Shown here piece after piece: positions 6,227 to 46,406 of a stretch of 54,142 bases of DNA. The stretch spans positions 1 through 54,142 of the forward strand of contig JBCKWI010000005.1 of assembly GCA_038922795.1 (NCBI GenBank), written 5' to 3'. Position 1 is the first letter of the stretch; every line of letters begins with the position of its first letter. The DNA is from Gammaproteobacteria bacterium. GTDB lineage: Bacteria > Pseudomonadota > Gammaproteobacteria > Eutrophobiales > Eutrophobiaceae. Made by a program: the position numbers and the translations under genes. Under the pieces are notes generated by a model. It made no database searches. It was not told the DNA's origin and saw only the letters and a program-made list of their open reading frames with translations.

Positions 6227-6660
6227 TCCAGGTTAGCAGCCTTATTTTTTTAGTTACAACAACTGCAAGAATAATTTTTTCCACTAACTGTGCCCTTATA
6301 TGGCCCCTTCATTACTGGGGCAGTTATGCGCCGCGCGGCTAAGTCGATGAAACTCATCGGGCTTTTTTAGTTATTGCCCCTTTTTTCTATACCACCTTCA
6401 TTTTGGGTGACTTGCGTAGGAAATATTTCACACCAAAGTACAGTGCCTTTCCTTAATAGAAAATTTTCCCATTAACACCGCGTTAATATTTTTAATCGAA
6501 TGGAAACCTATTGGATAGGTAATTATTTTCTATCCTTCTCCGGGGCCCATGAATAGGATCCAAGCCCGTTATATTAACCCGAAAGCCCTGTTTATAACGA
6601 ATAGGAAAATTTGCTTCGGTTACATGTTATTTAATTAAACAATTATTGTGGAGCATTTAT

Positions 6661-6930
6661 ATGAAGAAAAATAAAGATAACGATGAAGACGTACAGTTAG
6701 AGAAGCTTAAGAAAGTAGCACTTATGCTGATCACTGAACAAGTAAAGGAGTTAAAGCCTGATATTGCTTACATAACGGAATACCTACTACGGCGTATCTG
6801 GAAAGACCTTTCAGAAAAGGAGCGCGGTCTTGCTGATACGGCTGTAGGCGTCTTGGCTAAGACAAACCAAATACCGCTTGTTTGTTTCTATATAACTAGT
6901 ACAGATCTGAGTCTATTTACACTTAAATAA
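6661..6930 (+). CDS. DUF1413-like small protein (copy 1)
   Basis: RBS GGAG before ATG 6661; aligns with 7213-7530 (IW..L, TNQ, TS). Confidence 0.55.
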   Translation: MKKNKDNDEDVQLEKLKKVALMLITEQVKELKPDIAYITEYLLRRIWKDLSEKERGLADTAVGVLAKTNQIPLVCFYITSTDLSLFTLK

Positions 6931-6949
6931 TTTAGCCATAACAACTCAT

Positions 6950-7007
6950 GGCCATGTGAAGTCTCTTTTGCATGGCCTTTTTTTATGTCCAATTTTATTG
7001 CATACAG
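6950..7007 (+). terminator. Intrinsic terminator plus conserved tail (copy 1)
   Basis: GGCCATGTGAA...TTTGCATGGCC-T7; near copy at 7539-7595. Confidence 0.8.
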
Positions 7008-7212
7008 AAAGATCACAAATAAAAAATAATAGAAAAATTTTCTGCTTGATTTTTTATAAACCGCGCCCATACTCAACGAAGAAATTTGTTACTGTATTAA
7101 TATAGATCGTTCATTAAGGCAAGCGCCAACCAGCTTTTTATAAGCTGTTCAAATAGCATATCAATAACTGATTTCTCCAAAATATTTTATCAACCAATTT
7201 ATTGGAGAATAC

Positions 7213-7530
7213 ATGAAAACTGTTTCAAGCAATGTTATCCACTTAAATAACCAAAGTGATGAATTAAGTTTAATACCTATCAACCAAGCTTATGAAAATG
7301 ATCCGCTAACAAAGAAACTTCTTAGATTAGCGCCCAAATACATAGAGCGACTTTCCTATAATGTAGAGTTTGAAGCTAAAACTATATTGCATGAAATATG
7401 GTGGAAGCTACCAAGAACAATAGCAGGCAGACGATTCAAATATTTGGTTTTGACTAATCAGCTTCTGCTTATATACAGGGGTGATACCTCTTCACATCAT
7501 GCATTGTATATTCGCAAATCAACTTATTAA
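7213..7530 (+). CDS. DUF1413-like small protein (copy 2)
   Basis: RBS GGAG; W..L....AGRRFKYLV...GDTSSHHALY pattern. Confidence 0.6.
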   Translation: MKTVSSNVIHLNNQSDELSLIPINQAYENDPLTKKLLRLAPKYIERLSYNVEFEAKTILHEIWWKLPRTIAGRRFKYLVLTNQLLLIYRGDTSSHHALYIRKSTY

Positions 7531-7538
7531 GTTCATTA

Positions 7539-7595
7539 GGCCATGTGAAATTTCTTTTACATGGCCTTTTTTATTTCCAATTTCATTACATACAG
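7539..7595 (+). terminator. Intrinsic terminator plus tail leading into the integrase RBS (copy 2)
   Basis: GGCCATGTGAA...TTTACATGGCC-T6, then CAGGAGG and ATG 7606. Confidence 0.8.
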
Positions 7596-7605
7596 GAGGT
7601 AATCC

Positions 7606-8795
7606 ATGACCGAAAAACCAAAACTCACCAATGAAAATATCCATACCTTTAAGCACCCACCAGAAGGAAAACGAAAAAGTGAAATTCCAGATACACTCAT
7701 CACTGGGCTCTACCTAGAGCTTAGAATGTCAGGCAAATCTACCTACTGGTTCCGCTACACCAACCCCACCACTCGCCGCCTCTCGCACATCAAAGTCGGC
7801 CCCGGTAACGCACTCACGCTCGGGCAGGCCCCGAAAGCAAGGCCCGCGCACTGCGTGCCACCCTGGCCCTCGGTGGTAACCCAAAGGCGGATTTAGAGGC
7901 CCAGCGGGATGCTCCCCTCTTCACGGTATTTATGGAAGACACCTACTTAGCGTGGACAGAGGAAACGACCAAGGAATCTTCAAGCTGTAAGAAGGAACAG
8001 CACTATCGATTGCACCTCAAGGATGAGTTCAAGGATAGACGCCTCAATCAAATCACCAAGGCCGATGTCAAAAAGCTACAGTCCAAGTTACATGCTAAAG
8101 AGCTGAGTAGTGCATCAATTAATCGCGTCATAACTACTCTGCGTCATGCGATGGGACATGCTTATGATCTGGAGCTGATTGAGAAAAATCCATGTCGGTG
8201 CATCAAGATGTATCCGGAAAATAATCAAATGGAATACTACCTGCAAGGAGATGACTTGAAGAACCTGCTCAAAGTATTGAAAACAGATAAGAACAAAATG
8301 ATTTGTTCAATCGTACTTTTCTTGTTGAGTACTGGCGCACGTCTAAATGAAGCATTGAAAGCGAAATGGTCTGAATGTGATACTCAGAATCGTGTTTGGA
8401 AAATACCCGCTCAAAATGCGAAATCAGGGAAGGTACGTTCAGTTCCATTGAATGATACAGCCATCAGTGTATTGGATAGTGTCGATACAAAAGGCGAATA
8501 TGACTATATATTCATCAATCGAAAGACAAATAATCCATACACCAATATCACGCGTTCATGGCACCGCATCAGGAAGGCGGCTGGACTACCTTTCTTGAGG
8601 CTTCATGATTTGCGTCATTCATTTGCTTCATTCTTGGTTAATTCAGGCAGGACTCTGTATGAAGTGCAACAGACACTTGGCCATAGCAATCAGGTGACCA
8701 CGCAACGGTATGCGCATCTGAGCACCAAGACGTTACAGGATGCAAGTAATACTGCTTCGGACTTTATCAATGAAGCGATGAGAGAAGCATCGTAG
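7606..8795 (+). CDS. Tyrosine integrase (arm-binding + catalytic domains), frame break near 7830
   Basis: Arm-binding pattern (D..ITGLYL.....GKSTY.FRY) in 7606-7896; the -1 frame continues KARALRATLALGGNPKAD into 7932-8795 with TGARLNE, HDLRH, LGHS and TTQRY. Confidence 0.85.
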
Positions 8796-9414: not shown

Positions 9415-9490
9415 TGGTGGCCAGGGGCGGAATCGAACCACCGACACAGGGATTTTCAGTCCCCTGCTCTACCAACTGAGCTACCTAGCC
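9415..9490 (-). tRNA. tRNA-Phe(GAA)
   Basis: Reverse complement GGCTAGGTAGCTCAGTTGGTAGAGCAGGGGACTGAAAATCCCTGTGTCGGTGGTTCGATTCCGCCCCTGGCCACCA. Confidence 0.98.
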
Positions 9491-9499
9491 ATATTTAAA

Positions 9500-9720
9500 T
9501 TTTTCCATGCCATCCATGGCGCAAGTTCACAAACTTCGATAACGACCAGCCTTGTCATCCTCTGACAAGGCGCTCATCAGGAAATTTGTTCACTGGACAA
9601 ATTTCTTTGTCCGGTTCGCCCAACTTGGTCACTAAGTTATTCGGTACTTCCATGTACCTCACCCTGCGGGCCAGCGCCGTAAACGACGCTGTTCAATTTC
9701 TGTTCCCTACGAAATTGTCG
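9500..9720 (-). repeat. Hairpin-rich tRNA leader with several GGA-loop stem-loops
   Basis: On the minus strand: GGTAC-ATGGAA-GTACC, CCTTGTC-AGAGGAT-GACAAGG, GCC-ATGGAT-GGC and others. Confidence 0.65.
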
Positions 9721-9737
9721 GCCTTCCAAACCAGAAG

Positions 9738-9773
9738 AGCGCGTATTAAACCGGGCTATTGCCGTTCCGTCAA
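9738..9773 (-). promoter_or_regulatory. sigma70 stable-RNA-type promoter for tRNA-Phe
   Basis: TTGACG-17 nt-TTTAAT followed by GC-rich discriminator ACGCGC. Confidence 0.75.
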
Positions 9774-9781
9774 GTCATCGG

Positions 9782-10054
9782 TTATTCCTTCGGCGGAACA
9801 TACTCACCAGGCTTCTCCGAGCCCTGACCGAAGAAGAACTTCTCCATTTCTTCCTCCAGGAACTTTCTGGCTTTGGGTTCTATCGGGGTCAGGCGGTATT
9901 CGTTGATAAGCATGGTCTGGTGCGCCAGCCACATTTTCCAGGCCTCCTGCGACACATTTTCAAAAATGCGTTTACCGAGTTCGCCGGGGTAGGGAGCATA
10001 TTTCAGCCCCTCTGCCTCTTTATTCAATTTTACACATTGTACGGTCCTGGTCAT
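9782..10054 (-). CDS. yggX: Fe(II)-trafficking/oxidative damage protection protein
   Basis: RTVQCVKL...[14 protein letters not shown]; downstream of mutY. Confidence 0.95.
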
Positions 10055-27911: not shown

Positions 27912-28725
27912 GTCATTGCGAGCGCAGGTCTACAGGAAGTACAGAATTTCGGTGGAGAGTCTAGCCGGGAGCAGGAACCGGGTCGAACAGGGGGTTGTTT
28001 ACTGGATGCTGGTCGCTACGGACTGACGCATAGGGATATGCTAATGCCGCGATCACAAGGAGGTGAATGAGCGGCCCTGTCCTTTCGCGGCATTTCCCAT
28101 ATCCTATGGGTCGTTTTCACCAGCATGATGGTAAAGATACTTAATCAGAGGTTCCTTAGAACATTCTTCGCGTGCAGGGCACGCTCCTACAGGATGACGA
28201 CCTATGTAGGAGCACGCCCTGCGTGCGACAAAAATCATTCGCGGTAGTGGTCCGCTCCTGCAATGAAGATTTCTCGCTACGCTCGAAATGACAAACTGCG
28301 GTCGAAATGACAAACATTTTCTGTCATTTCGAGCGCAGGTCTACAGGAAGTACAGAATTTCGGTGGAGAGTCTAGCCGGGAGCAGGAACCGGGTCGAACA
28401 GGGGGTTGTTTACTGGATGCTGGTCGCTACGGACTGACGCATAGGGATATGCTAATGCCGCGATCACAAGGAGGTGAATGAGCGGCCCTGTCCTTTCGCG
28501 GCATTTCCCATATCCTATGGGTCGTTTTCACCAGCATGATGGTAAAGATACTTAATCAGAGGTTCCTTAGAACATTCTTCGCGTGCAGGGCACGCTCCTA
28601 CAGGATGACGACCTATGTAGGAGCACGCCCTGCGTGCGACAAAAATCATTCGCGGTAGTGGTCCGCTCCTGCAATGAAGATTTCTCGCTACGCTCGAAAT
28701 GACAAATCATTTTCTGTCATTTCGA
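27912..28725. repeat. 411-bp tandem duplication of a composite REP/MITE cluster
   Basis: 27919-28295 matches 28330-28706; contains a GTAG-type REP pair, an IS5-like TIR and nested ~51-bp modules. Confidence 0.9.
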
Positions 28726-31663: not shown

Positions 31664-32434
31664 TCAAAAATTCTTTCTGTAAAGGTCGAACAATGCCGCC
31701 GCGGAAAGCAAACTGACATATATCACGCTTTGTATAATGATAACGGGTAAATCGCCTGCATTTCCGGAACCGTATACCAGCCATTCCGTCCGGGTAAAAC
31801 CGGCAAGATCCGGCAAAACATACGCAATCAGATCGATAGCTTTATTCATAAACTGCTGTGACAAGGCTGTTGATTCAAGTATCGGGCTGCGACTTAAAAG
31901 CTGAATGGTACTGATACTTCTTGCCAATAGATAAAATGCTACTACGACAGTGAAGGCAGTTGTTATGTTTCCGAATGTGAAAAGACACAGCAGACAAAGC
32001 GCAATAATGATAAATAACTCACACATCAATGACACAACCCATAAAGCAACTTGGGTAAATTCAGAATAAAGCAGGAGAGGCAAACTCAGGAGAAGCGAAA
32101 AAACCACTGTCAGAAGAAAAAACCCGGAAAGCTTGCCAAGATAATAAACGTATCTGGATAAAGGCAGCGATATGATCATGTCCACTGTTTTATCATTGAA
32201 TTCCCTGACAACACTGGTAATTACAAACAGACTGATAACGAAGACAGTCGCCAGACGCATGACAAAACCCACCAGCCCTCCCTGCACCTGATGAGTTTCA
32301 GTTATGGCAAGTTCACCGGCAAACTGCCCTAGTGCAAATACACAGACTATACCAATCAAACCGAGGACAAACAGGCGGTTTTTAATCGCTTCAAGGAAAG
32401 TATATTTAGCAATCGTGATAACCGGGTGTTTCAT
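31664..32434 (-). CDS. ABC-2 type transporter permease
   Basis: IAKYTFLEAIKNR, LPLSR..Y.LGK, multiple TM segments, F.RKNF end. Confidence 0.88.
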   Translation of the reverse strand: MKHPVITIAKYTFLEAIKNRLFVLGLIGIVCVFALGQFAGELAITETHQVQGGLVGFVMRLATVFVISLFVITSVVREFNDKTVDMIISLPLSRYVYYLGKLSGFFLLTVVFSLLLSLPLLLYSEFTQVALWVVSLMCELFIIIALCLLCLFTFGNITTAFTVVVAFYLLARSISTIQLLSRSPILESTALSQQFMNKAIDLIAYVLPDLAGFTRTEWLVYGSGNAGDLPVIIIQSVIYVSLLSAAALFDLYRKNF

Positions 32435-32452
32435 AATGACATTGTATAAATG

Positions 32453-32851
32453 CTAAAGCCTCCGTGCATCAGGCAATACTGCCATCTTTCGATCAAGGGT
32501 GAGGGTCACAAGGCCGGAACGGCAGTAATCATCCGCAATAAGGCGATCAAGCAATCCACAACCAGTCCTGGTTTCAAGGATTTTGAGTACATTATTACCA
32601 TTAAGAGGAGCCACCAGCCCGCTACTAAAAACCTGGGTAAGTGCAGTGCGGGCATCTCCCCTGGATACACCATAATGGTGTTGAAGAACGATATATGCTT
32701 CACCAATGACCTGGTTTGAAACAAATGTTTCTGCATCTTCCTGTTCTATGAGAAGCGTTAACTTACGAACACTGTCTTCGAAACCTGCCTTGGGATCACC
32801 TGTAAGCAGGCGAACAAGGATAGAAGTATCAATCCCGAAGCGAGGGGTCAT
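32453..32851 (-). CDS. vapC: PIN-domain toxin VapC
   Basis: GIDTSILVR, conserved E, LLDRLI, TLD. Confidence 0.85.
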   Translation of the reverse strand: MTPRFGIDTSILVRLLTGDPKAGFEDSVRKLTLLIEQEDAETFVSNQVIGEAYIVLQHHYGVSRGDARTALTQVFSSGLVAPLNGNNVLKILETRTGCGLLDRLIADDYCRSGLVTLTLDRKMAVLPDARRL

Positions 32852-33071
32852 GCGGTTTTTTTCGGAAGGTATTCAGATTAAACCTGCCTTTACCTTTACG
32901 TATTTTATTGCGTAATGGGGCAAGGCGTGAGAGATCGATACGGCGGGGCCGGAGAATATAACCTTCTGTGCCTTCACGTAATTCAAGACTATCACCGGGT
33001 TGTACTCCAAGCGAATCCAGCACCCGGGCCGGGAAAGTGACCTGACGTTTAGCTGTAATTTTGATAATCAT
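32829..33071 (-). CDS. vapB: AbrB/MazE-family antitoxin
   Basis: KITAKRQVTFP..V.DSLGVQPGD. Confidence 0.85.
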   Translation of the reverse strand: MIIKITAKRQVTFPARVLDSLGVQPGDSLELREGTEGYILRPRRIDLSRLAPLRNKIRKGKGRFNLNTFRKKPHDPSLRD

Positions 33072-33306
33072 GGTAATACCTGCATTTCACCTTACTGAAA
33101 GGATAGTTTAGTAAGGCATATATGTCAAACCAGATGTACATCCATCCCTATTAACCCGCTGGTAAAGAAGCGGTTTTTAATCGCTTCAAGGAAAGTATAT
33201 TTAGCAATCGTGATTACGGGATATTTCATAGTAGAATGCGTTAAATTATGTTACGAGATCAATTATATACTATGGTGTCCATGTTATTCACATTCAGAGA
33301 GTATTC

Positions 33307-33537: not shown

Positions 33538-35208
33538 ATGACCAGTGTAATGCAACCCATCATCAACCGGCGGGATTATTTTATTCTCGCCGCCATGCTG
33601 GGTTTCCTGCATGCCGCGCTCCTGATTGATTTTGGCAGTGCAATTTCCAGCGCCCTGCTGCTGATACATCTCGGGTTTTTCCTGCTCTGGCAACCTTTAC
33701 AAAAAAGTGAAGAAAAATATGCCTGGTATAATGGCATCATTTTCATAGGGCTAATGCTGGCGTTTGCCTATTGGGTCAACTGGTGGTTGATCTTTGCGTG
33801 GCTGATTTTGCTGATAGGGATAGCCGGTGGCCGGGTTGTTATCAACCGGACGGAAAGGTATGTTCTCTTTCTGGCCATGATTTTCCTCGTCTCTGAATTG
33901 TTAATTATTGCTATTCCCAGCCTGTTTACTGTCGTTTACGGTAATCCGGTTTTTAATCCTCTTAAATACGCCATCATTTTCATCCCATTGGCATTGCCAC
34001 TCTTTCCACGTCCTTATGCAAGGAAAACGGAATTGTCCGTTGATTTGTTACATGCCATCACGGCCTCGCTGCTGGTAGGCCTCCTTGCACTTGGCAGTCT
34101 GGTCATTATGTATCACAGCGGCACGGATTATTTCACTTCCCTGATTTATTCCCTCCTCGCGATCGGCACCGGCCTGCTATTGATCAGCTGGCTGTTATCA
34201 GCGCATACAGGTTTCGGGATGTTGTCCCAGCTATGGTCCAGATCGCTGTTGAATATCGGCACCCCCTTTGAACAATGGCTTGCGGAGTTATCCGCTCTTA
34301 AAGATCAACACGAATCTCCGGCAGATTTTCTGGAAGCCGCCATTGAAAAACTTGCCGCCCTGCCCTGGATATCCGGTGTTAAATGGCATATATCCGATCA
34401 ACTGAATATTCATGGAATCAAGACCAGCCATGCAATCAAACTCAGCATCAAAACATACCCTGTCACCCTTTATACCCGCGTCCCCGTTGGTGGCGCGCTA
34501 TTGTTACACTGCAAACTACTCATGAAACTGATTGAATATTTCTATATGGCCAAGGTGAATGAGCGTGAACTGGCGAACCGGGCACATCTGCAGGCCATAT
34601 TCGAGACCGGTGCCCGTATCACACACGATATTAAAAACCTTCTGCAATCCATGCATTCCATGGTCACCATACTGCAGGCGGACACGACTGAGACAGACTC
34701 AAAGTCTGTTCTTATCCTTAAAAAACAATTCCCCTATTTTATCCAGCGCCTCGAACAGGCCATGGATAAACTCCAGACGCCGCAGCAGTTCAGCAAGGAA
34801 GAGATCTATCTGATGGACTGGTGGGGGGAATTAAATGCACACTACAAGGACTACCATATTGATTTCCATGCGGAGATAGACAGCAATCCATTGATCCCGT
34901 TTGACCTGTTTAACAGTATCACGGGAAACCTGCTCGAAAATGCCATCACAAAACGCAAAGGCGAGCCTGATATCAGGATCTCCGCAAAAATAAATATCAA
35001 GGGTGACGCGATCAGCTTGATAGTTTCTGATACCGGCAAGGCCATCGATGAAAAAACTGCCGCCATGTTATTCAAGGAATCTCTGAAATCAGATAACGGC
35101 CTCGGTATAGGTCTGCTTCAGGCTGCCAAGCAGGCCGAATCCATGGGTTACACACTCAGCCTGAAATATAATTTCACCGGTAATGTGTGTTTTGAGTTAC
35201 ACAATTAG
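33538..35208 (+). CDS. Membrane sensor histidine kinase
   Basis: Many TM segments; THDIKN, NLLENA, DTG, GLGIGL. Confidence 0.9.
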   Translation: MTSVMQPIINRRDYFILAAMLGFLHAALLIDFGSAISSALLLIHLGFFLLWQPLQKSEEKYAWYNGIIFIGLMLAFAYWVNWWLIFAWLILLIGIAGGRVVINRTERYVLFLAMIFLVSELLIIAIPSLFTVVYGNPVFNPLKYAIIFIPLALPLFPRPYARKTELSVDLLHAITASLLVGLLALGSLVIMYHSGTDYFTSLIYSLLAIGTGLLLISWLLSAHTGFGMLSQLWSRSLLNIGTPFEQWLAELSALKDQHESPADFLEAAIEKLAALPWISGVKWHISDQLNIHGIKTSHAIKLSIKTYPVTLYTRVPVGGALLLHCKLLMKLIEYFYMAKVNERELANRAHLQAIFETGARITHDIKNLLQSMHSMVTILQADTTETDSKSVLILKKQFPYFIQRLEQAMDKLQTPQQFSKEEIYLMDWWGELNAHYKDYHIDFHAEIDSNPLIPFDLFNSITGNLLENAITKRKGEPDIRISAKINIKGDAISLIVSDTGKAIDEKTAAMLFKESLKSDNGLGIGLLQAAKQAESMGYTLSLKYNFTGNVCFELHN

Positions 35209-35244
35209 CATGATCATAATACCATAACCTGCATAACATACCTT

Positions 35245-35541
35245 TCAAAGATTCTTTAACTGTTCAGGTAACAGGCGTGCACTATGGCGTATTGTCAAAA
35301 TATCTATTCGATCAGGAAGGATACGGTAGATAATCCGATACCGGCCCTCGTATATTTCCCGAATATCGTCCCGTTGATATTTAGACACTTGTTTTCCACT
35401 ACGTGGATGCTCTGCTAGCACCTGCACTCTACGGGTTATTCAATCAATAAAACGTAAAGCATTAGAGGGTTGATCTTCTGCTATGTAATTATAGAGTTGT
35501 TGTAATCAATACCGGCTCTTATGCGTCCAATTGACCTTCAT
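35245..35541 (-). pseudogene. RelE/ParE toxin with two in-frame TGA codons
   Basis: MKVNWTHKSRY*LQQLYNYIAEDQPSNALRFID*ITRR...YRIIYRI...ILTIRHSAR. Confidence 0.85.
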
Positions 35542-35732
35542 TCAGGTAAACCAAACTGCTGACGCACAGTTGTATTATCTACAACCCGGCCTGCATCACT
35601 ATCTTCCAATCCTTCCTCAATATCTTGCATAACTGAAAGTTCATAAATCAGGTCTTTCCAGCTCGCTTCATCCGGTAATTGGTCTATCAACTGATGTGCC
35701 GCTTGTTTAATTGTATGGGTTGGCGTACTCAT
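35538..35732 (-). CDS. Antitoxin upstream of the RelE/ParE toxin
   Basis: LIDQLPDEASW..L.Y.L...IEEGL.D..AGRV; ATGA overlap with the toxin. Confidence 0.8.
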   Translation of the reverse strand: MSTPTHTIKQAAHQLIDQLPDEASWKDLIYELSVMQDIEEGLEDSDAGRVVDNTTVRQQFGLPE

Positions 35733-35762
35733 CTCAAACCTCATCTGGTTTTACTGTTTATA

Positions 35763-35938
35763 GAACCTATCTTAAAATTGATTTTCTGCTTTTTTGACAG
35801 AATCAATAACCGATGACACCTTCCCCCTGGCAGGGGGAAGGCCGGGATGGGGGTTGAGTTTCAGCCATGTTTTATATTTCACCCCCACCTCAATCCTCCC
35901 CCTTCAAGGGGGAGGAAGTTTAATTTTGAGATAGGTTC
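35763..35938. mobile_element. 176-bp MITE (GAACCTATCTYAAAATT TIR, TA flanks), empty form
   Basis: Homologue of 44456-44679 lacking the 48-bp insert. Confidence 0.85.
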
Positions 35939-36220
35939 TACAATATTTTACACTATCTCACTGCTCTACACAGGTCCATGTGCATATCTTTTATATTCGT
36001 CATATGGCAACTGGCCTATCTTAACAAGGGAAAAGGTTATTCTTGAATTGATGGAACCTTATAGTCAAACCCAAGTAGTCCTTTGGGTTACACACTCAGC
36101 CTGAAATATAATTTCACCGGTAATGTGTGTTTTGAGTTAAGAAAATTAAATGACTATTGAAGCGTTACCAGATGGGCGCTATCCTTCACGTATTGATTTA
36201 ATCTTTAATAACCTACAGCC

Positions 36221-36511
36221 ATGAAACCTTCAAATTCACTCAAGCAACACAGGGCAGCTATCCGGCAAATCATTAAACGCCACCATGCAGATAACGCCAG
36301 AATCTTTGGCTCAGTTCTAAAGGGTAATGATAAAGAGGGGAGTGATCTGGATATTATTGTTGATCCAACCCCCTTAACCACGCTAATGGACATAGGTGCT
36401 ATGCGCATCGAGTTACGTAACCTTCTTGGTGTTGAGGTCGATGTATTGACTCCAAATTCTCTCCCCGGCCACTTTCGTGAACAGTTGCTCCGGGACGCAC
36501 AACCTGTATGA
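36221..36511 (+). CDS. Minimal nucleotidyltransferase antitoxin (MntA-like)
   Basis: IFGS..KG.D..GSDLDI, VDVLT. Confidence 0.9.
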   Translation: MKPSNSLKQHRAAIRQIIKRHHADNARIFGSVLKGNDKEGSDLDIIVDPTPLTTLMDIGAMRIELRNLLGVEVDVLTPNSLPGHFREQLLRDAQPV

Positions 36512-36870
36512 ATTCTGAAGAGCGCGCCAGACTTAAAGATTACCTGGGCCACATACTTCTCGCAATTGACCGCATTAATCTGTATATCGATGAGATGAAC
36601 GAAATAGCATTTACTCAGGATCAGCGTACCCAAGATGCTGTAATCTGTAATTTTTAGATTATAGGTGAAGCCTCAAGAAACATAACAAAACACTATCCTG
36701 AATATGCAGCAAAGAACTCACATGTGCCGTGGGACATTGCATATGAAATGAGGAATGTTCTGTCACATGGTTATTTCGGAGTTGATATCGGTATTGTCTG
36801 GAAAACGATTGAAAATGATCTGCCTATACTTAAAGCTCAAATAAACGGATTATTACAAACAACCAACTGA
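36508..36870 (+). pseudogene. HEPN/DUF86 toxin (HepT-like) with an internal TAG at codon 50
   Basis: DAVICNF*IIGEA (usually DAVIRNFEIIGEA); RNVLSHGYF motif; TAG at 36655-36657. Confidence 0.88.
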
Positions 36871-36877
36871 AAACAGC

Positions 36878-37120
36878 ATGGCTGCATTGAATTATCTCTC
36901 TATAAATGACGAATTTACCCCGTTTGTATTGAGCGAATACATCAAGAACCCGGTTCGGGTTATGCGCATCGAAGCTGGCCTGAACCAGGCACAACTTGCA
37001 CGCCGCTTAGGTGTCACACAAGGTTATATCAGCCGGATCGAAGGCCGCAATTATCCTGTAAGTGAAAAATTGCTTAAACGGGTAAACGATGTTCTGAAAG
37101 TTGCTCGTAAAAAGAAATAA
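36878..37120 (+). CDS. Xre-family HTH protein (orphan antitoxin-like)
   Basis: R.EAGLNQAQLARRLGVTQGYISRIE. Confidence 0.8.
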   Translation: MAALNYLSINDEFTPFVLSEYIKNPVRVMRIEAGLNQAQLARRLGVTQGYISRIEGRNYPVSEKLLKRVNDVLKVARKKK

Positions 37121-37278
37121 TACTGCCAGGCCATAAATCAGTTCGGCAAAATCCAATGATTTTCCCTGAAATATAATTTCACCGGTAATGTGTGTTTTGA
37201 GTTACACAATTAGACAAGACAATAATATCGATCCTGTCATTTCGAGTGAATACGAGAAATTTTATTATAAAATGAATA

Positions 37279-38007
37279 TCAGGGAAGGATTCCTGCATTC
37301 AGCATCTTGGTCCTGAGAATATGCGGTGAGATCCAAATCATAAGATCATCAATATCAAAGCTGTAATCCCTATACACAAAATATTCATCATCATTAAGAT
37401 TTTCTGCTTCATCTGTGGATGGCGCTTCAGCCCAGTCCTTTCCGTATGATACAACAATTGCGGGAATTTCTGTAGCAAGATTTGATCCGCCAGCACTATT
37501 CAGAACAACAATGTCACCATCCGAACATAATGCAAATGAAACATTCAGTGTAGTGTCAGAACATGAAGGAGGATTATTGGCACCATCTGTATTATCACCA
37601 AATGTTGTAGTAACACGGTAAGTGAATCTCTGCCCCCATGCATCATGTTCCTTAACCCCTAATATTACCCAGGGAAGATTCCCCATTGCTGTGGCACAAC
37701 TAGCGCCACCCAGTATATCTTCAACGCCATCATTTGCCGTCATGGTCGCACAATCACCCGCATTGTCCCTGCAATCCGGGCATGGCAGGCGATACTTATT
37801 GAGCACATTATTTTGATTGAACATGAAACCGAATAACACCTCTTTGATCTCATCCAGTTGGGCCTGTGTTTGCTCCCGTTGCCTCTGCTCTATCTGAGTT
37901 GTCAAGGGTGGCAATATAGCGCCCAAAAGTAGTGCGAGAATAAATAACACTATCGCTAACTCGATCAGTGTAAAACCACTGTGATATTGAATTTTCATTT
38001 CGGTCAT
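37279..38007 (-). CDS. Minor prepilin-like protein
   Basis: HSG/FTLIELAIVLFILALL; LPCPD, DAWG. Confidence 0.88.
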   Translation of the reverse strand: MTEMKIQYHSGFTLIELAIVLFILALLLGAILPPLTTQIEQRQREQTQAQLDEIKEVLFGFMFNQNNVLNKYRLPCPDCRDNAGDCATMTANDGVEDILGGASCATAMGNLPWVILGVKEHDAWGQRFTYRVTTTFGDNTDGANNPPSCSDTTLNVSFALCSDGDIVVLNSAGGSNLATEIPAIVVSYGKDWAEAPSTDEAENLNDDEYFVYRDYSFDIDDLMIWISPHILRTKMLNAGILP

Positions 38008-43043: not shown

Positions 43044-44220
43044 AAATCGGTCCTAATACGGAAAACATAACCCAGCCGATAATCGTGCCGAGCACAACAG
43101 TCATTGCAGGTTCAATCATGGTCTGTACTTTCTCAATAGATTCTTTAATGTCGCGGGTATAGAAATAACTGATATTCAGCAATGCGCCTTCCAATGCGCC
43201 TGTGTTCTCCCCTACCCTGATCATTCGCAACACCAGAGGCGGGAATAATCTGGCCTTCTCAAAACTCCTGCTCAGGGTTTCGCCTTCCGCAATCAATTGC
43301 CCGACCTGGCGCATGGCCTCTTCAATGACCTTGTTGCCGACAATCTGCTCGCCGGTGCGGATACATTCAATAATGGTTATTCCCGAGGCATACATCATGG
43401 CAAAAAAACTGGTCAGACGGGTCAGGATAATCTTTTTCAGAATCGGCCCGATGATCGGGGTCTTCAATTTCAGCGCATCGACATTATAACGGAATGAAGG
43501 GCTCACCCTGATACCTACCATAATTGCTATATACAATAAAACCGGCAACGATAAAATCAGGTACCAGTAATTTACGAACACATTGGAGACTACTATCAGT
43601 GCCTTGGTATGCGCTGGCAGTTCCTGCCCCATGGTTTTTACGAATGTGAGTAATTCAGGAACCAGATAAATCATAAGAAAAAACACAACCGCGATGACTA
43701 CACTGCCTACCACTACCGGATAGATAAGCAACTTCTTGGTTTGCGCTGCTGTTTCATCCTGCCACTTCAGGTTTTCACCAATGTTAAAAAATACCTGTGT
43801 AATTTCACCTGACTGCTCGCCTGCCCGTACCAGTGCACTGAATATTCTATCAAACACAGCCGGATAATCGCGCATGGCGTCTGACAGTGTTTTACCACCT
43901 TCAATGGATTCAATCATCGAGGCAATCACTTCACGCAGCCGTGGGTTTTCAGTACTGTCCCGGAGGTCCTGCAGGCTTTCCAGGATGGGCACGCCGGCGC
44001 GACTGGTTTGTTCAAGGTGAAAACAGAAGGTGATCAAATCCCGGCGCGTTACACCGGCGCCGGTAATTCTCTGGGTACTGGAGCCCAGTTCTTTATAATT
44101 AATCAGGTCCAGACCCATCTTGGTCAGGCGCGCCTCAAGGTCAGCGATATTGACGGCATCAACCTTGCCGTTATGTATCCTGCCGTTATCGTCGATTGCC
44201 TTGTATTTGTATGCTTCCAT
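43015..44220 (-). CDS. PilC/GspF/MshG platform protein
   Basis: AGEQSG, YP, GENTG.L, IEP, PIY. Confidence 0.93.
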   Translation of the reverse strand: MEAYKYKAIDDNGRIHNGKVDAVNIADLEARLTKMGLDLINYKELGSSTQRITGAGVTRRDLITFCFHLEQTSRAGVPILESLQDLRDSTENPRLREVIASMIESIEGGKTLSDAMRDYPAVFDRIFSALVRAGEQSGEITQVFFNIGENLKWQDETAAQTKKLLIYPVVVGSVVIAVVFFLMIYLVPELLTFVKTMGQELPAHTKALIVVSNVFVNYWYLILSLPVLLYIAIMVGIRVSPSFRYNVDALKLKTPIIGPILKKIILTRLTSFFAMMYASGITIIECIRTGEQIVGNKVIEEAMRQVGQLIAEGETLSRSFEKARLFPPLVLRMIRVGENTGALEGALLNISYFYTRDIKESIEKVQTMIEPAMTVVLGTIIGWVMFSVLGPIYDLISKVKI

Positions 44221-44269
44221 CGGGACCCTTGTTTACCGTTTGTTCACGGATACTACTTCAACCTGCTGC

Positions 44270-44435
44270 GCCTTCCCCCTGGCAGGGGGAAGGTTGGGAT
44301 GGGGGTTGAGTTTCAGCCATTCCTGAGATTTCACCCCCACCTCGACAACTGTTCCCGGCGTTGTTCTCGGTCTCCGCTCCAGACTCGACTCTACCTCCTC
44401 CTTCCTTGGAGTCGTCGCTTCGCTCGGAATGACAA
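44270..44435. repeat. Chimeric repeat: MITE core + half 48-bp module (44342-44366) + full module (44367-44414) + REP arm
   Basis: Left part repeats 44510-44579; ends TCGCTTCGCTCGGAATGACA. Confidence 0.8.
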
Positions 44436-44455
44436 ATGAATATTCATGTTAATTA

Positions 44456-44679
44456 GAACCTATCTCAAAATTAGTTTTCCGCTCTTTTGACGGAAGCAAT
44501 AATCCACTGCGCCTTCCCCCTGGCAGGGGGAAGGTTGGGATGGGGGTTGAATTTCAGCCATTCCTGAGATTTCACCCCCTCGACAACTGCTCCCGGCGTT
44601 GTTCTAACTCCTGCATCCATGCAGTCGACCTCAATCCTCCCCCGTCAAGGGGGAGGAAGTTTAATTTTGAGACAGGTTC
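44456..44679. mobile_element. 224-bp MITE = 176-bp form plus a 48-bp module (44580-44627)
   Basis: Same TIRs as 35763-35938; length differs by exactly 48. Confidence 0.88.
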
Positions 44680-44690
44680 TAATAAATTCT

Positions 44691-46406
44691 TCACTTCTGT
44701 TTTATCCTGCTGGTCAAATCAATGACACGTGACATTTCTTCCAGTGATGTTGAACCATCCAGCACCCGTGCCGAGCCTGAATCCGCCAGGGTCTTGAATC
44801 CTTTCGACAAGGCGGCGCGCATGAGTTCACGCTGGGTACCGCGCCGGGCAATGATGTCGTCCAGGTCAGTATCGAGATGCAGGATTTCCAGGATTGCCAA
44901 TCTGCCCCTGTAGCCTTGCCCTTCACATTGCTGGCAACCTTTGGCACGATAGGTAGATTGATGTTTATCCGTTACCTTCAAGTTTAGCAGCGTCCGCTCC
45001 AGTTCACTCATTTCGTAAGACTCTTTACAAACGGGACAAAGCTTTCGCACCAGCCGCTGTGCGATTATCCCGATGATGTTACCGGCCAGAATGTCCGGTT
45101 TTATGCCGATATCCATGAGGCGTGGTATCGCCGCCAGAGCCGAATTGGTATGCAGGGTTGAAAACACCTGATGTCCGGTCATCGCGGCGCGCAAGGCCAT
45201 GCTGGCCGTATCTTCATCACGAATTTCACCGACCAGAATAATATCCGGATCCTGGCGCATCATGGAACGGATACCGCTGGCAAAATCCAGCCGGGATGTT
45301 TCACTGGCCGAGGTCTGGCGGATCATGCTGGTGGGGTATTCCACCGGGTCTTCCAGGGTCATGATATTGACTGATTCGCTGTTCAGATAATGCAGAATGG
45401 AATAGAGCGTTGTGGTCTTGCCGCTGCCGGTGGGGCCGGTGATCAGGATAATGCCCTCCGGACGGGAAACCATGATCTTCAATATATTGAGCGCATCATC
45501 CTTGAGACCGAGTTTTTCCAGGGCGACAATACCACTCTGGCGATCCAGCACACGCAGGACAATATTTTCGCCATGTACCGTGGGTAATGTTGAAACACGG
45601 AAATCAACCGGGCGCCCGGAGAGAGAAAGCGAGATACGTCCATCCTGCGGGGAACGGGTTTCGGCAATGTCCATACCGGCCATGACTTTTAAACGCACGG
45701 CAATCGCTGACCAGTAATTTTTATGGATGCTGCGGATCTGGCGCAAGACTCCGTCAATTCGATAGCGGAACCTGAGGAAACCTTCTTCCGGCTCAAAGTG
45801 GATGTCCGAGGCACGGCGCTTGACCGCATCCGCCAGCAATGCGTTCACCAGACGCACTACCGGCTGGCTGTATTCATCGCTTTCCGCATCCAGACTTTGA
45901 TAATCGATCTCGCCGGTCTCGATCTCTTTCAGGATGCCATCAACGGATAATTCAAAACCATAAAACTGATCAATACATTTTTCTATTTCCGCTTCACCAG
46001 CAAGCACAGGTATTAATTCTATCTCCCTGCCAACCTGGACACTGACCTGATCCAGCACGACCACGTTAAATGTATCCGTCATGGCGATGGTCAGCTTCTT
46101 GTTTGCACTGTCATAAGTCAGTGGCAAGACATGCAGGCGGCGGGCCAGTGCTTTGGGCACCAATGTGACTGCATCACCGTCGGCAACGGCATTTTCCAGA
46201 TTGACACTGACCTGACCGATAACGCCACCAATGACATCGCGAATGATAGACTCTGTTGCAAATCCCAAACGCACCAGTATCTTGCCGAGTTTTTCCTTGC
46301 TTTTTTTCTGTTCCATCAGCGCAATTTCAATCTGATCGGGCGTGGTGACACCTTGCTGAACAAGGATCTCTCCCAGGCGTTGGACCTTTTTATTCTGGAG
46401 ACTCAC
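44691..46406 (-). CDS. PilB/GspE/MshE extension ATPase with MshEN-like N-terminus
   Basis: RLGEILVQQG, ASDIHFEP, GPTGSGKTT, RQDPD, CxxC pairs. Confidence 0.95.
   Translation of the reverse strand: MSLQNKKVQRLGEILVQQGVTTPDQIEIALMEQKKSKEKLGKILVRLGFATESIIRDVIGGVIGQVSVNLENAVADGDAVTLVPKALARRLHVLPLTYDSANKKLTIAMTDTFNVVVLDQVSVQVGREIELIPVLAGEAEIEKCIDQFYGFELSVDGILKEIETGEIDYQSLDAESDEYSQPVVRLVNALLADAVKRRASDIHFEPEEGFLRFRYRIDGVLRQIRSIHKNYWSAIAVRLKVMAGMDIAETRSPQDGRISLSLSGRPVDFRVSTLPTVHGENIVLRVLDRQSGIVALEKLGLKDDALNILKIMVSRPEGIILITGPTGSGKTTTLYSILHYLNSESVNIMTLEDPVEYPTSMIRQTSASETSRLDFASGIRSMMRQDPDIILVGEIRDEDTASMALRAAMTGHQVFSTLHTNSALAAIPRLMDIGIKPDILAGNIIGIIAQRLVRKLCPVCKESYEMSELERTLLNLKVTDKHQSTYRAKGCQQCEGQGYRGRLAILEILHLDTDLDDIIARRGTQRELMRAALSKGFKTLADSGSARVLDGSTSLEEMSRVIDLTSRIKQK

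Follow-up and report, generated by a model that had tools for sequence, protein, structure and literature searches.

We analyzed a 54,142-nucleotide (nt) stretch of DNA from a gammaproteobacterial metagenome-assembled genome (MAG), namely positions 1 to 54,142 of contig JBCKWI010000005.1. This whole stretch is called the window, and positions given without a contig name refer to it. The source assembly, GCA_038922795.1 (G000), comprises 1.92 Mb in 127 contigs and is 72.6% complete. The locus of interest is the 3' end of a histidine kinase gene (HK), behind which two small toxin-antitoxin (TA) cassettes lie between copies of that gene end. Cassette A is the unit with a ParE toxin, and cassette B is the unit with the MNT-HepT pair and an Xre gene. 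The locus contains the following features, including open reading frames (ORFs) and a miniature inverted-repeat transposable element (MITE).

33538..35208, plus strand: HK, the target gene, an intact ORF with a HATPase_c match encoding a multi-pass membrane histidine kinase whose protein end reads ...FELHN (stop).
35144..35208, plus strand: copy 1, the functional HK 3' end, 65 nt up to the stop, from the repeat search and direct reading.
35245..35535, minus strand: ParE/RelE-family toxin pseudogene of cassette A (PF05016, profile positions 1-88).
35538..35744, minus strand: antitoxin-like ORF of 68 amino acids (aa) in cassette A, adjoining ParE.
35758..35943, strand unassigned: MITE-like hairpin element in cassette A with 29-nt inverted arms.
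36084..36139, plus strand: second HK-end copy (copy 2), which matches the first 56 nt of copy 1 at 100% and lacks the last 9 nt.
36221..36511, plus strand: intact MNT nucleotidyltransferase gene, the antitoxin of MNT-HepT (PF18765, PF01909).
36508..36870, plus strand: HepT (HEPN) toxin pseudogene (PF01934).
36878..37120, plus strand: Xre/HTH ORF of 80 aa (HTH_31, HTH_3).
37165..37213, plus strand: third HK-end copy (copy 3), 49 nt with the TAG stop included, 100% identical to copy 1.
37279..38007, minus strand: pilin-like gene with an N-terminal methylation motif (N_methyl), convergent to HK, which abuts the HK stop in cassette-free relatives.

Copy 2 was an exact repeat of 35144-35199, the 56 nt that precede the final three codons of HK, and copy 3 was an exact repeat of 35160-35208 with the HK stop codon TAG included. 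The repeat search returned one family with three members that share a 40-nt core, and the start-to-start distances between the copies were 940 and 1065 nt. The core occurred exactly three times in the 1.92-Mb assembly, compared with zero occurrences of a reversed-pattern control, thereby excluding chance as its source. Whole-assembly searches of G000 and of the same-genus genome G001 found no HK-end copies away from the HK locus. These results confirm the anatomy proposed in an earlier note on this DNA, which had reported the recurrence of the HK 3' end at both places, units of 940 and 1065 bp, and contents consisting of a RelE/ParE pair with a MITE and an MNT-HEPN pair with an Xre gene. The contents were verified by ORFs, Pfam matches, and the inverted arms.

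Two other readings of the repeat were considered. A structured RNA or terminator was rejected because the DNA folded no better than shuffles (z = -1.05). No convincing match to a dif/Xer-like site was seen by eye against the consensus, and this comparison is not counted as a test. In addition, copy 2 read in the HK frame (36140-36160) would end in ...FELRKLNDY (stop). The HK of G002, another genome of the genus, ends in ...FELRNQTAN (stop) (L034 7745-7766), unlike the ...FELHN of G000 and G001. The resemblance between copy 2 and the G002 tail may be due to chance or may be the trace of an alternative HK tail.

The two inserts measured 875 and 1025 nt and contained solely TA-family ORFs and the MITE. 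Small toxin and antitoxin neighbors of known families were present both here (ParE_toxin, MNT with HepT, HTH) and in the adjacent cassette upstream of HK described below (PIN with a MazE-type gene). In cassette A, the ParE gene contained two in-frame TGA codons, at 35506-35508 and 35440-35442, inside the PF05016 match. The 68-aa ORF beside it had no Pfam or NCBIfam match; its counterpart in G020, a genome of another genus, is a conserved partner ORF upstream of a ParE homologue. Relatives of the MITE-like element were found at 44213-44695, and the element reached hundreds-fold contig depth in unrelated metagenome runs. In two metagenome runs (0.08 and 0.05 of sampled words), high-identity contigs of at most 174 nt covered portions of HK, MNT, and the antitoxin of cassette A, and none of them crossed a junction at the repeats. 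In cassette B, the MNT gene showed 80-81% nt identity to its counterparts in two other loci, L039 and L040, and the HepT gene carried an in-frame TAG at 36655-36657, a codon that specifies Glu in both of those loci. The Xre ORF corresponds to the 3' two-thirds of a 112-aa HigA-type antitoxin gene from which HigB and the HigA N-terminus are gone; G001 and L040 have full HigB and a 112-aa HigA at this position. All three toxins of the array are thus inactive (two TGA codons in ParE, one TAG in HepT, and no HigB), with the antitoxin-side genes still open. The VapC gene next door is intact.

Next, the HK protein was queried against 60 relatives, and an orthologue was found in 28 of them. The comparison included G001 and G002, which belong to the same genus as G000, and loci L039 to L043, which include metagenome contigs. 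In G002 (HK 64% identical at the aa level), the site was empty: the HK end occurred once, and the convergent pilin-like gene terminated a few nt past the HK stop. Loci from other genera also showed a tight convergent HK junction with no HK-end copy downstream, and the visible downstream gene began roughly 1-70 nt past the HK stop. In G001 (HK 85% aa), one cassette was present, consisting of a MITE, a RelE/HigB-like toxin gene, and the 112-aa HigA, followed by a diverged HK-end copy. The metagenome contigs L041-L043 were G001-like; in L042 and L043, a diverged HK-end copy again stood after the single cassette (MITE, HigB, HigA) and shared its left boundary with copy 3. A third lineage, L040 (HK approximately 80% nt), carried the HK end, approximately 120 nt, an intact MNT-HepT, a 144-nt HK end, a full HigBA, and a 49-nt HK end. 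L039, a contig of 1.19 kb, carried the end of an Xre-like gene, MNT-HepT, an HK-end piece of approximately 150 nt, and a ParE-like gene on the opposite strand. At the DNA level, MNT-HepT was absent from the 60 family genomes searched and was held only by the metagenome loci L039 and L040. The left boundary of copy 3 coincided with that of the distal HK-end copy in G001 and L040, and the length and left boundary of the duplicated HK end varied by cassette (49, 56-65, and approximately 144-150 nt). The HK 3' end is therefore a dynamic hot spot whose cassette contents differ by lineage.

The order of events can be partly reconstructed. The middle HK-end copy of L040 precedes sequence that is found after the HK stop in G001, which is most simply explained if HigBA was already in place when MNT-HepT inserted on its HK side. 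In the G000 lineage, a deletion would then have taken the middle copy, HigB, and the start of HigA, so that MNT-HepT now abuts a truncated HigA, and cassette A would have been added in front. HK identities among G000, G001, and L040 were 87.7%, 79.9%, and 77.2%, and those of the cassettes were 80-84% for MNT-HepT and 85% for HigBA. Because cassette divergence roughly tracks HK divergence, most of the array is likely to be old. Copy 3 differed at 2 of 49 sites between G001 and L040, and each differed from the G000 copy at 6. The copies within G000 are 100% identical despite this divergence elsewhere, suggesting some recent recombination or conversion in the G000 lineage.

A 127-contig MAG with 100% identical copies raises the question of whether strain variants were chained by the assembler through the 49-56-nt exact repeat, and the G001 contigs with the folA and MTAP-type genes indeed end at or near repeat-flanked TA sites of G000. 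We consider such an artifact extremely improbable. Independent assemblies contain copies that are diverged and hence uncollapsible, with two in G001, L042, and L043 and three in L040. Moreover, the HK-end copy at each cassette end has a boundary of its own, indicating that real molecules carry each of the cassettes between repeats; a chimera could affect only the order of A before B.

The footprint seen at HK was also found elsewhere in the genome. A VapBC cassette that adjoins HK upstream has an 87-nt copy of the 5' end of an ABC-2 permease gene (31664-32434) on either side.

32349..32435, minus strand: gene-attached copy, formed by the 5'-terminal 87 nt of the ABC-2 permease gene, from the repeat search and alignment.
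32453..33071, minus strand: cassette of VapC (PIN, 32453-32851) and VapB (MazE/AbrB-type, 32829-33071), from Pfam.
33144..33230, minus strand: stranded ABC-2 5'-end copy, 84% identical and still joined to the native upstream region, from alignment with G001 and L040.

VapBC was missing and the ABC-2 5' end was single-copy in G001, L040, and L041-L043. A census of the whole G000 assembly, based on Pfam searches of the assembly and Pfam checks of ORFs, identified 37 toxin loci: 13 ParE, 10 PIN/PIN_3, four Gp49, three HicA, two PemK, and one each of HepT, YafQ, BrnT, DUF5615, and DUF2442. Flanking repeats were defined as same-strand pairs of at least 30 nt with at least 70% identity and a spacing of 300-3500 nt, and 20000 random intervals of 270 nt served as the null set. 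Local direct repeats lay on both sides of 15 of the 37 toxin genes, compared with 841 of the 20000 random intervals (4.2%), and a census toxin lay within 22 of the genome's 103 repeat pairs. These figures are rough, since toxins that share one array are nonindependent and several unflanked toxins lie at contig ends.

For eight of the 15 flanked toxin genes (seven loci), the repeat was the terminus or near-terminus of a neighboring conserved gene. The duplicated genes at the seven loci were HK, ABC-2, PmbA, an MTAP-type phosphorylase, FolA, a cupin-like gene, and a 280-aa gene, and repeat lengths at the TA loci other than HK ranged from 31 to 165 nt. Empty single-copy sites were found for BrnTA (cupin end) in G002 and for HicAB in G001. 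At DinJ-YafQ, homology to G001 and G002 begins exactly at the pmbA-end repeat, and the other flank is unshared. For the folA and MTAP cassettes, G001 contigs terminate at or near the insertion positions, and G002 synteny differs. The earlier note had named empty or different cassettes in relatives, and other TA genes between repeats of neighboring gene ends, as the observations to look for, and both were found.

Several observations accompany the census. The G001 contigs that bear folA and the MTAP-type gene, C101 (end L061) and C100 (end L077), stop at or within the G000 TA sites, which suggests that variable or repeated DNA is present there too. Two short G000 contigs may be further TA arrays broken by assembly: C112 (3052 nt), with a PIN gene, a PIN fragment with a stop, PemK, and ParE, and C123 (2213 nt), with two PIN genes. 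At C10:6360-10426, three to four copies of a 110-250-nt repeat with 97-99% identity and hairpin-like ends act as separators of small unrelated genes and of a ParE pair (9443-9963). This region resembles another cassette-like array, in which the separator is no obvious gene end.

We then considered which machinery could have produced the array. Neither cassette A nor cassette B contained an integrase, transposase, or other mobility gene, and no integrase-family gene was found within approximately 26 kb of the array. The nearest Phage_integrase match, at 7606-8795, is the sole integrase of the window, a P4-type gene split into two ORFs (7606-7896 and 7932-8795). Likewise, no intI was found by the array, and the window held only a 36-bit partial TIGR02249 match at 8547-8726. 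A consensus-only scan for attC sites with the cores RYYYAAC ... GTTRRRY found no core pairs in the window and 89 in the genome. Four of these core pairs clustered beside the integron integrase of contig C8, at 29-30 kb. The cassette ends at 14 repeat-flanked TA loci, compared by inspection, had neither a terminal motif in common nor inverted repeats, and cassettes A and B lie in opposite orientations.

Upstream of the split P4-type integrase, two paralogous small ORFs (6646-6930 and 7213-7530) each precede a copy of a 58-nt hairpin-like repeat (6950-7007 and 7539-7595, 88% identical). The region 6646-8795 is probably a decayed genomic island.

These data bear on a recombinase acting in trans, for which the HK-end core would be the att site and the cassettes would be cis-mobilizable or IMEX-like elements accreting in tandem, each with its own length of flanking identity. 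The 40-nt core common to all copies does hold a 6-3-6 palindrome, and variable identity blocks are normal among elements that target gene 3' ends. The genome also encodes 11 Phage_integrase-family matches, including two full integron integrases at C50:2685-3626 and C8:24337-25272 (480 and 395 bits, against a TIGR02249 cut-off of 265), as well as integron integrase fragments at C29:867-1495 and C9:2861-3106. The C9 fragment directly precedes the repeat-flanked DinJ-YafQ cassette, and the C29 fragment adjoins a ParE gene. However, the palindrome is unconserved in the functional HK end of G001 and in G002, no recombinase gene is present within approximately 26 kb, the window has no canonical attC cores, and the copy fold does not exceed that of shuffles. 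Furthermore, a separate site-specific system would be needed for each of the unrelated neighbor-gene ends duplicated at seven or more other loci. We therefore regard this explanation as very unlikely. The absence of a recombinase and of attC at the cassette ends had been claimed in the earlier note and was borne out. Its proposal that TA units integrate serially at a gene-end att site was upheld in one part, as the site is a hot spot with cassettes each bounded by an HK-end copy; the att site itself found no counterpart in an integrase, attC, or a shared end motif. An integron-like att site is also disfavored by the variable length and left boundary of the duplication, by other loci duplicating their own neighbors, and by a tag that looks local rather than portable.

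The evidence for a local tag came from cassette A. A relative of this cassette with 76% nt identity and an intact toxin lies behind pck in G020, in which HK is only 48% identical. The homologous antitoxin-ParE pair (L085, contig C117, 1526-1934) is directly 3' of the gene for a GTP-dependent phosphoenolpyruvate carboxykinase, and contig C117 stops within the toxin gene. Cassettes of the A type thus seem to move horizontally and to settle at other gene ends. Because this relative sits behind pck and HK-end copies occur only at the HK locus, the repeat would have been made from the local target and not carried as a portable tag. In addition, the other TA loci each duplicate the end of their own neighbor, which argues against a single recognition site.

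The same evidence applies to Campbell-style minicircles, the homology-driven form of the proposal in the earlier note. A cassette looped out between two copies would carry one gene-end copy and return, through a RecA-dependent single crossover, to the HK end of its own or a related cell, so that the array grows from the HK side. The order copy-cassette-copy is the exact product of a single crossover, the newest cassette is apparently the HK-proximal one, and cassette A lies between 100% identical copies. MNT-HepT of L039 and L040 is also followed by an HK-end piece of approximately 144-150 nt with nearly the same left boundary, despite a different upstream neighbor. However, a travelling tag is unneeded if cassette A homologues stand behind another gene in another genus and HK-end copies are confined to HK. 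The 49-65 nt of homology would be a poor RecA substrate, and MNT-HepT in the window has no HK-end copy on its right side. Minicircles are thus decidedly unlikely to have built the array.

On balance, we favor, with some reservation, an origin of the HK array by "insertion with long target duplication," after which the copies would have undergone homologous recombination with one another. As part of this explanation, the array is probably old and decaying. TA cassettes would enter the HK/pilin junction repeatedly via host recombination, with no dedicated recombinase, and the target would be a convergent gene boundary with almost no intergenic DNA. Each insertion would duplicate a long piece of the target whose length varies (49 to approximately 150 nt of the HK 3' end), and the incoming TA DNA would be joined by illegitimate or short-homology joining. 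HK would keep one complete end, with the other copy left stranded on the far side of the cassette. Events that fail to preserve an entire gene end would be lost, and such selection would explain why the duplications are gene termini. The copies could then serve homologous recombination in stacking, precise cassette deletion, and copy homogenization, the last of which would account for the three 100% identical copies. In stacking, a repeat-flanked cassette of one lineage would be placed before the array of another, with HK as the left arm and a copy as the right arm.

Several points weigh against this explanation. Most of the toxin genes in the census (22 of 37) had no flanking repeats, and the source of the repeat was unassigned for seven of the 15 flanked ones, some of these repeats being hairpin- or MITE-like. 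The complete identity of the three G000 copies requires an extra conversion or recombination event. The palindrome in the shared core could be a protein-binding site, and the two integron integrases and other tyrosine recombinases encoded elsewhere in G000 might act in trans. The steps of the mechanism were deduced and none was observed, and the order of A and B in a MAG could be chimeric. Finally, when changes at six loci were polarized with the first outgroup, 38 fell in the gene-attached copy and 52 in the stranded copy, with no clean pattern of stranded decay, and at cupin/BrnTA the pattern was reversed (nine gene-attached and five stranded changes). This polarization fits gene ends borne by the donor about as well.

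Donor-borne gene ends are what homology-facilitated illegitimate recombination would supply. A linear donor carrying a gene end and a cassette would cross over in the gene body and join illegitimately in the resident end, so that the gene-attached copy is foreign and the stranded copy is resident. At cupin/BrnTA, the stranded copy is indeed nearer the outgroup than the functional copy (83% versus 79%), in line with the reversed polarization, and gene-attached copies overall carry many derived changes. Past the 56-nt repeat at cassette A, the first 9 nt rebuild the canonical end of HK. Genes for ComEC and DprA are present in all three genus genomes; this is weak support, since 10 of 14 control genomes have them as well. 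The stranded copy is, however, the more derived one at folA, pmbA, ABC-2, and HicAB, and no donor was identified. We assign very little probability to this route, which would amount to a variant of insertion with long target duplication, not a distinct type of element.

Insertion with long target duplication was reportedly described for restriction-modification (RM) systems by Nobusato et al. in 2000 (Gene 259:99). RM systems inserted in this way have repeats that are longer than 30 bp and variable in length, lack mobility genes, and correspond to an empty site in a relative in which the sequence occurs once; some repeats overlap a gene 3' end, and the repeats are proposed to drive amplification and release (Furuta, Abe, and Kobayashi 2010, PMC2853133; Mruk and Kobayashi 2014, PMC3874152). 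The likeness to the HK array includes an addiction-type unit, the absence of a mobility gene, variable repeats of more than 30 bp, a single-copy empty site, and overlap with a 3' end (PMC2853133, PMC3874152). When the definition in PMC2853133 is applied, the HK locus has repeats of more than 30 bp, a related genome whose empty site holds the sequence a single time, and inserts of less than 20 kb without a mobility gene; the definition names a complete RM cargo, and the cargo here consists of TA pairs. The array also differs in that the cargo is type II/VII TA, with toxins that are RNases or translation poisons and not DNA endonucleases. Because TA toxins do not cut DNA, the double-strand breakage proposed for RM systems cannot be the doing of the element itself. 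Further differences are the stacking of different cassettes at one site with three repeat copies and an association that spans approximately 40% of the toxin genes of one genome.

Other known systems share some of these features. Chromosomal integrons are tandem arrays of small cassettes rich in TA genes, with a recurring separator sequence, and their TA cassettes were reportedly treated by Pandey and Gerdes in 2005. Like an integron, the HK array has small tandem TA cassettes that are promoter-proximal-independent, a recurring separator, and the apparently newest cassette nearest the fixed end. Unlike an integron, it has no adjacent intI, attI, or attC, its cassettes lie in opposite orientations, and its separator is the end of a protein gene with boundaries that vary. 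Integrase-mediated elements that enter gene 3' ends carry a replacement end, and their recombinase-less derivatives, cis-mobilizable elements (CIMEs) and integrative mobile elements exploiting Xer (IMEX), accrete in tandem. The HK array resembles these derivatives in a gene-end duplication that preserves the target and in tandem elements between att-like copies; it differs in having no integrase in or near the cassettes, a core that is at most a candidate, and many unrelated gene ends duplicated in one genome. Cassettes also enter through homologous recombination at a conserved gene in rhs/cdiA C-terminal displacement and orphan arrays and in the minimal mobile elements of Neisseria. Older ends are pushed downstream in these systems and strains differ between two conserved genes, as at HK. 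In contrast to these systems, the anchor at HK is the end of a housekeeping-type sensor kinase with no toxin function, the cassettes are self-contained TA pairs, and only 49-150 nt are duplicated.

A 2026 study described the acquisition of TA pairs by hitch-hiking on mobile elements that are later lost, or by homologous recombination at flanking core genes (PMC13617665). Its TA pairs are like the HK array in lying alone between two core genes, without signature genes of mobile genetic elements, and in showing erosion with toxin inactivation. The main text of that study has zero occurrences of "direct repeat," and neither the gene-end footprint nor stacking is described there. We found no literature description of TA pairs inserted with long target duplication, a concept found only for RM systems, in a search that left subscription journals and supplements uncovered.

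The route by which chromosomal TA islets without mobility genes enter genomes is an open question, for which the HK locus gives a concrete footprint. This footprint links TA islets to RM-type insertion with long target duplication and shows that no DNA-cutting cargo is required for it. It also provides a searchable signature for dating and counting TA gains, namely a TA pair between copies of a neighbor's terminus together with an empty site in relatives. The HK array further illustrates a life cycle at one site, comprising entry, stacking, toxin loss, and antitoxin retention. A more far-reaching possibility, which we consider unlikely, is a recombinase-free, site-specific mobility of TA or addiction modules, in which the duplicated host gene end would be a built-in RecA homology arm for insertion, loop-out as a circle, and re-insertion in related cells. 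If true, this would be a functional analogue of the integron without an integrase, with addictive cargo ensuring retention, and the repeats at 40% of the toxin genes in G000 would be its footprint.

Elsewhere in the window, a near-perfect tandem duplication of 384 nt with 99.7% identity and a period of 411 nt was observed at 27912-28706.

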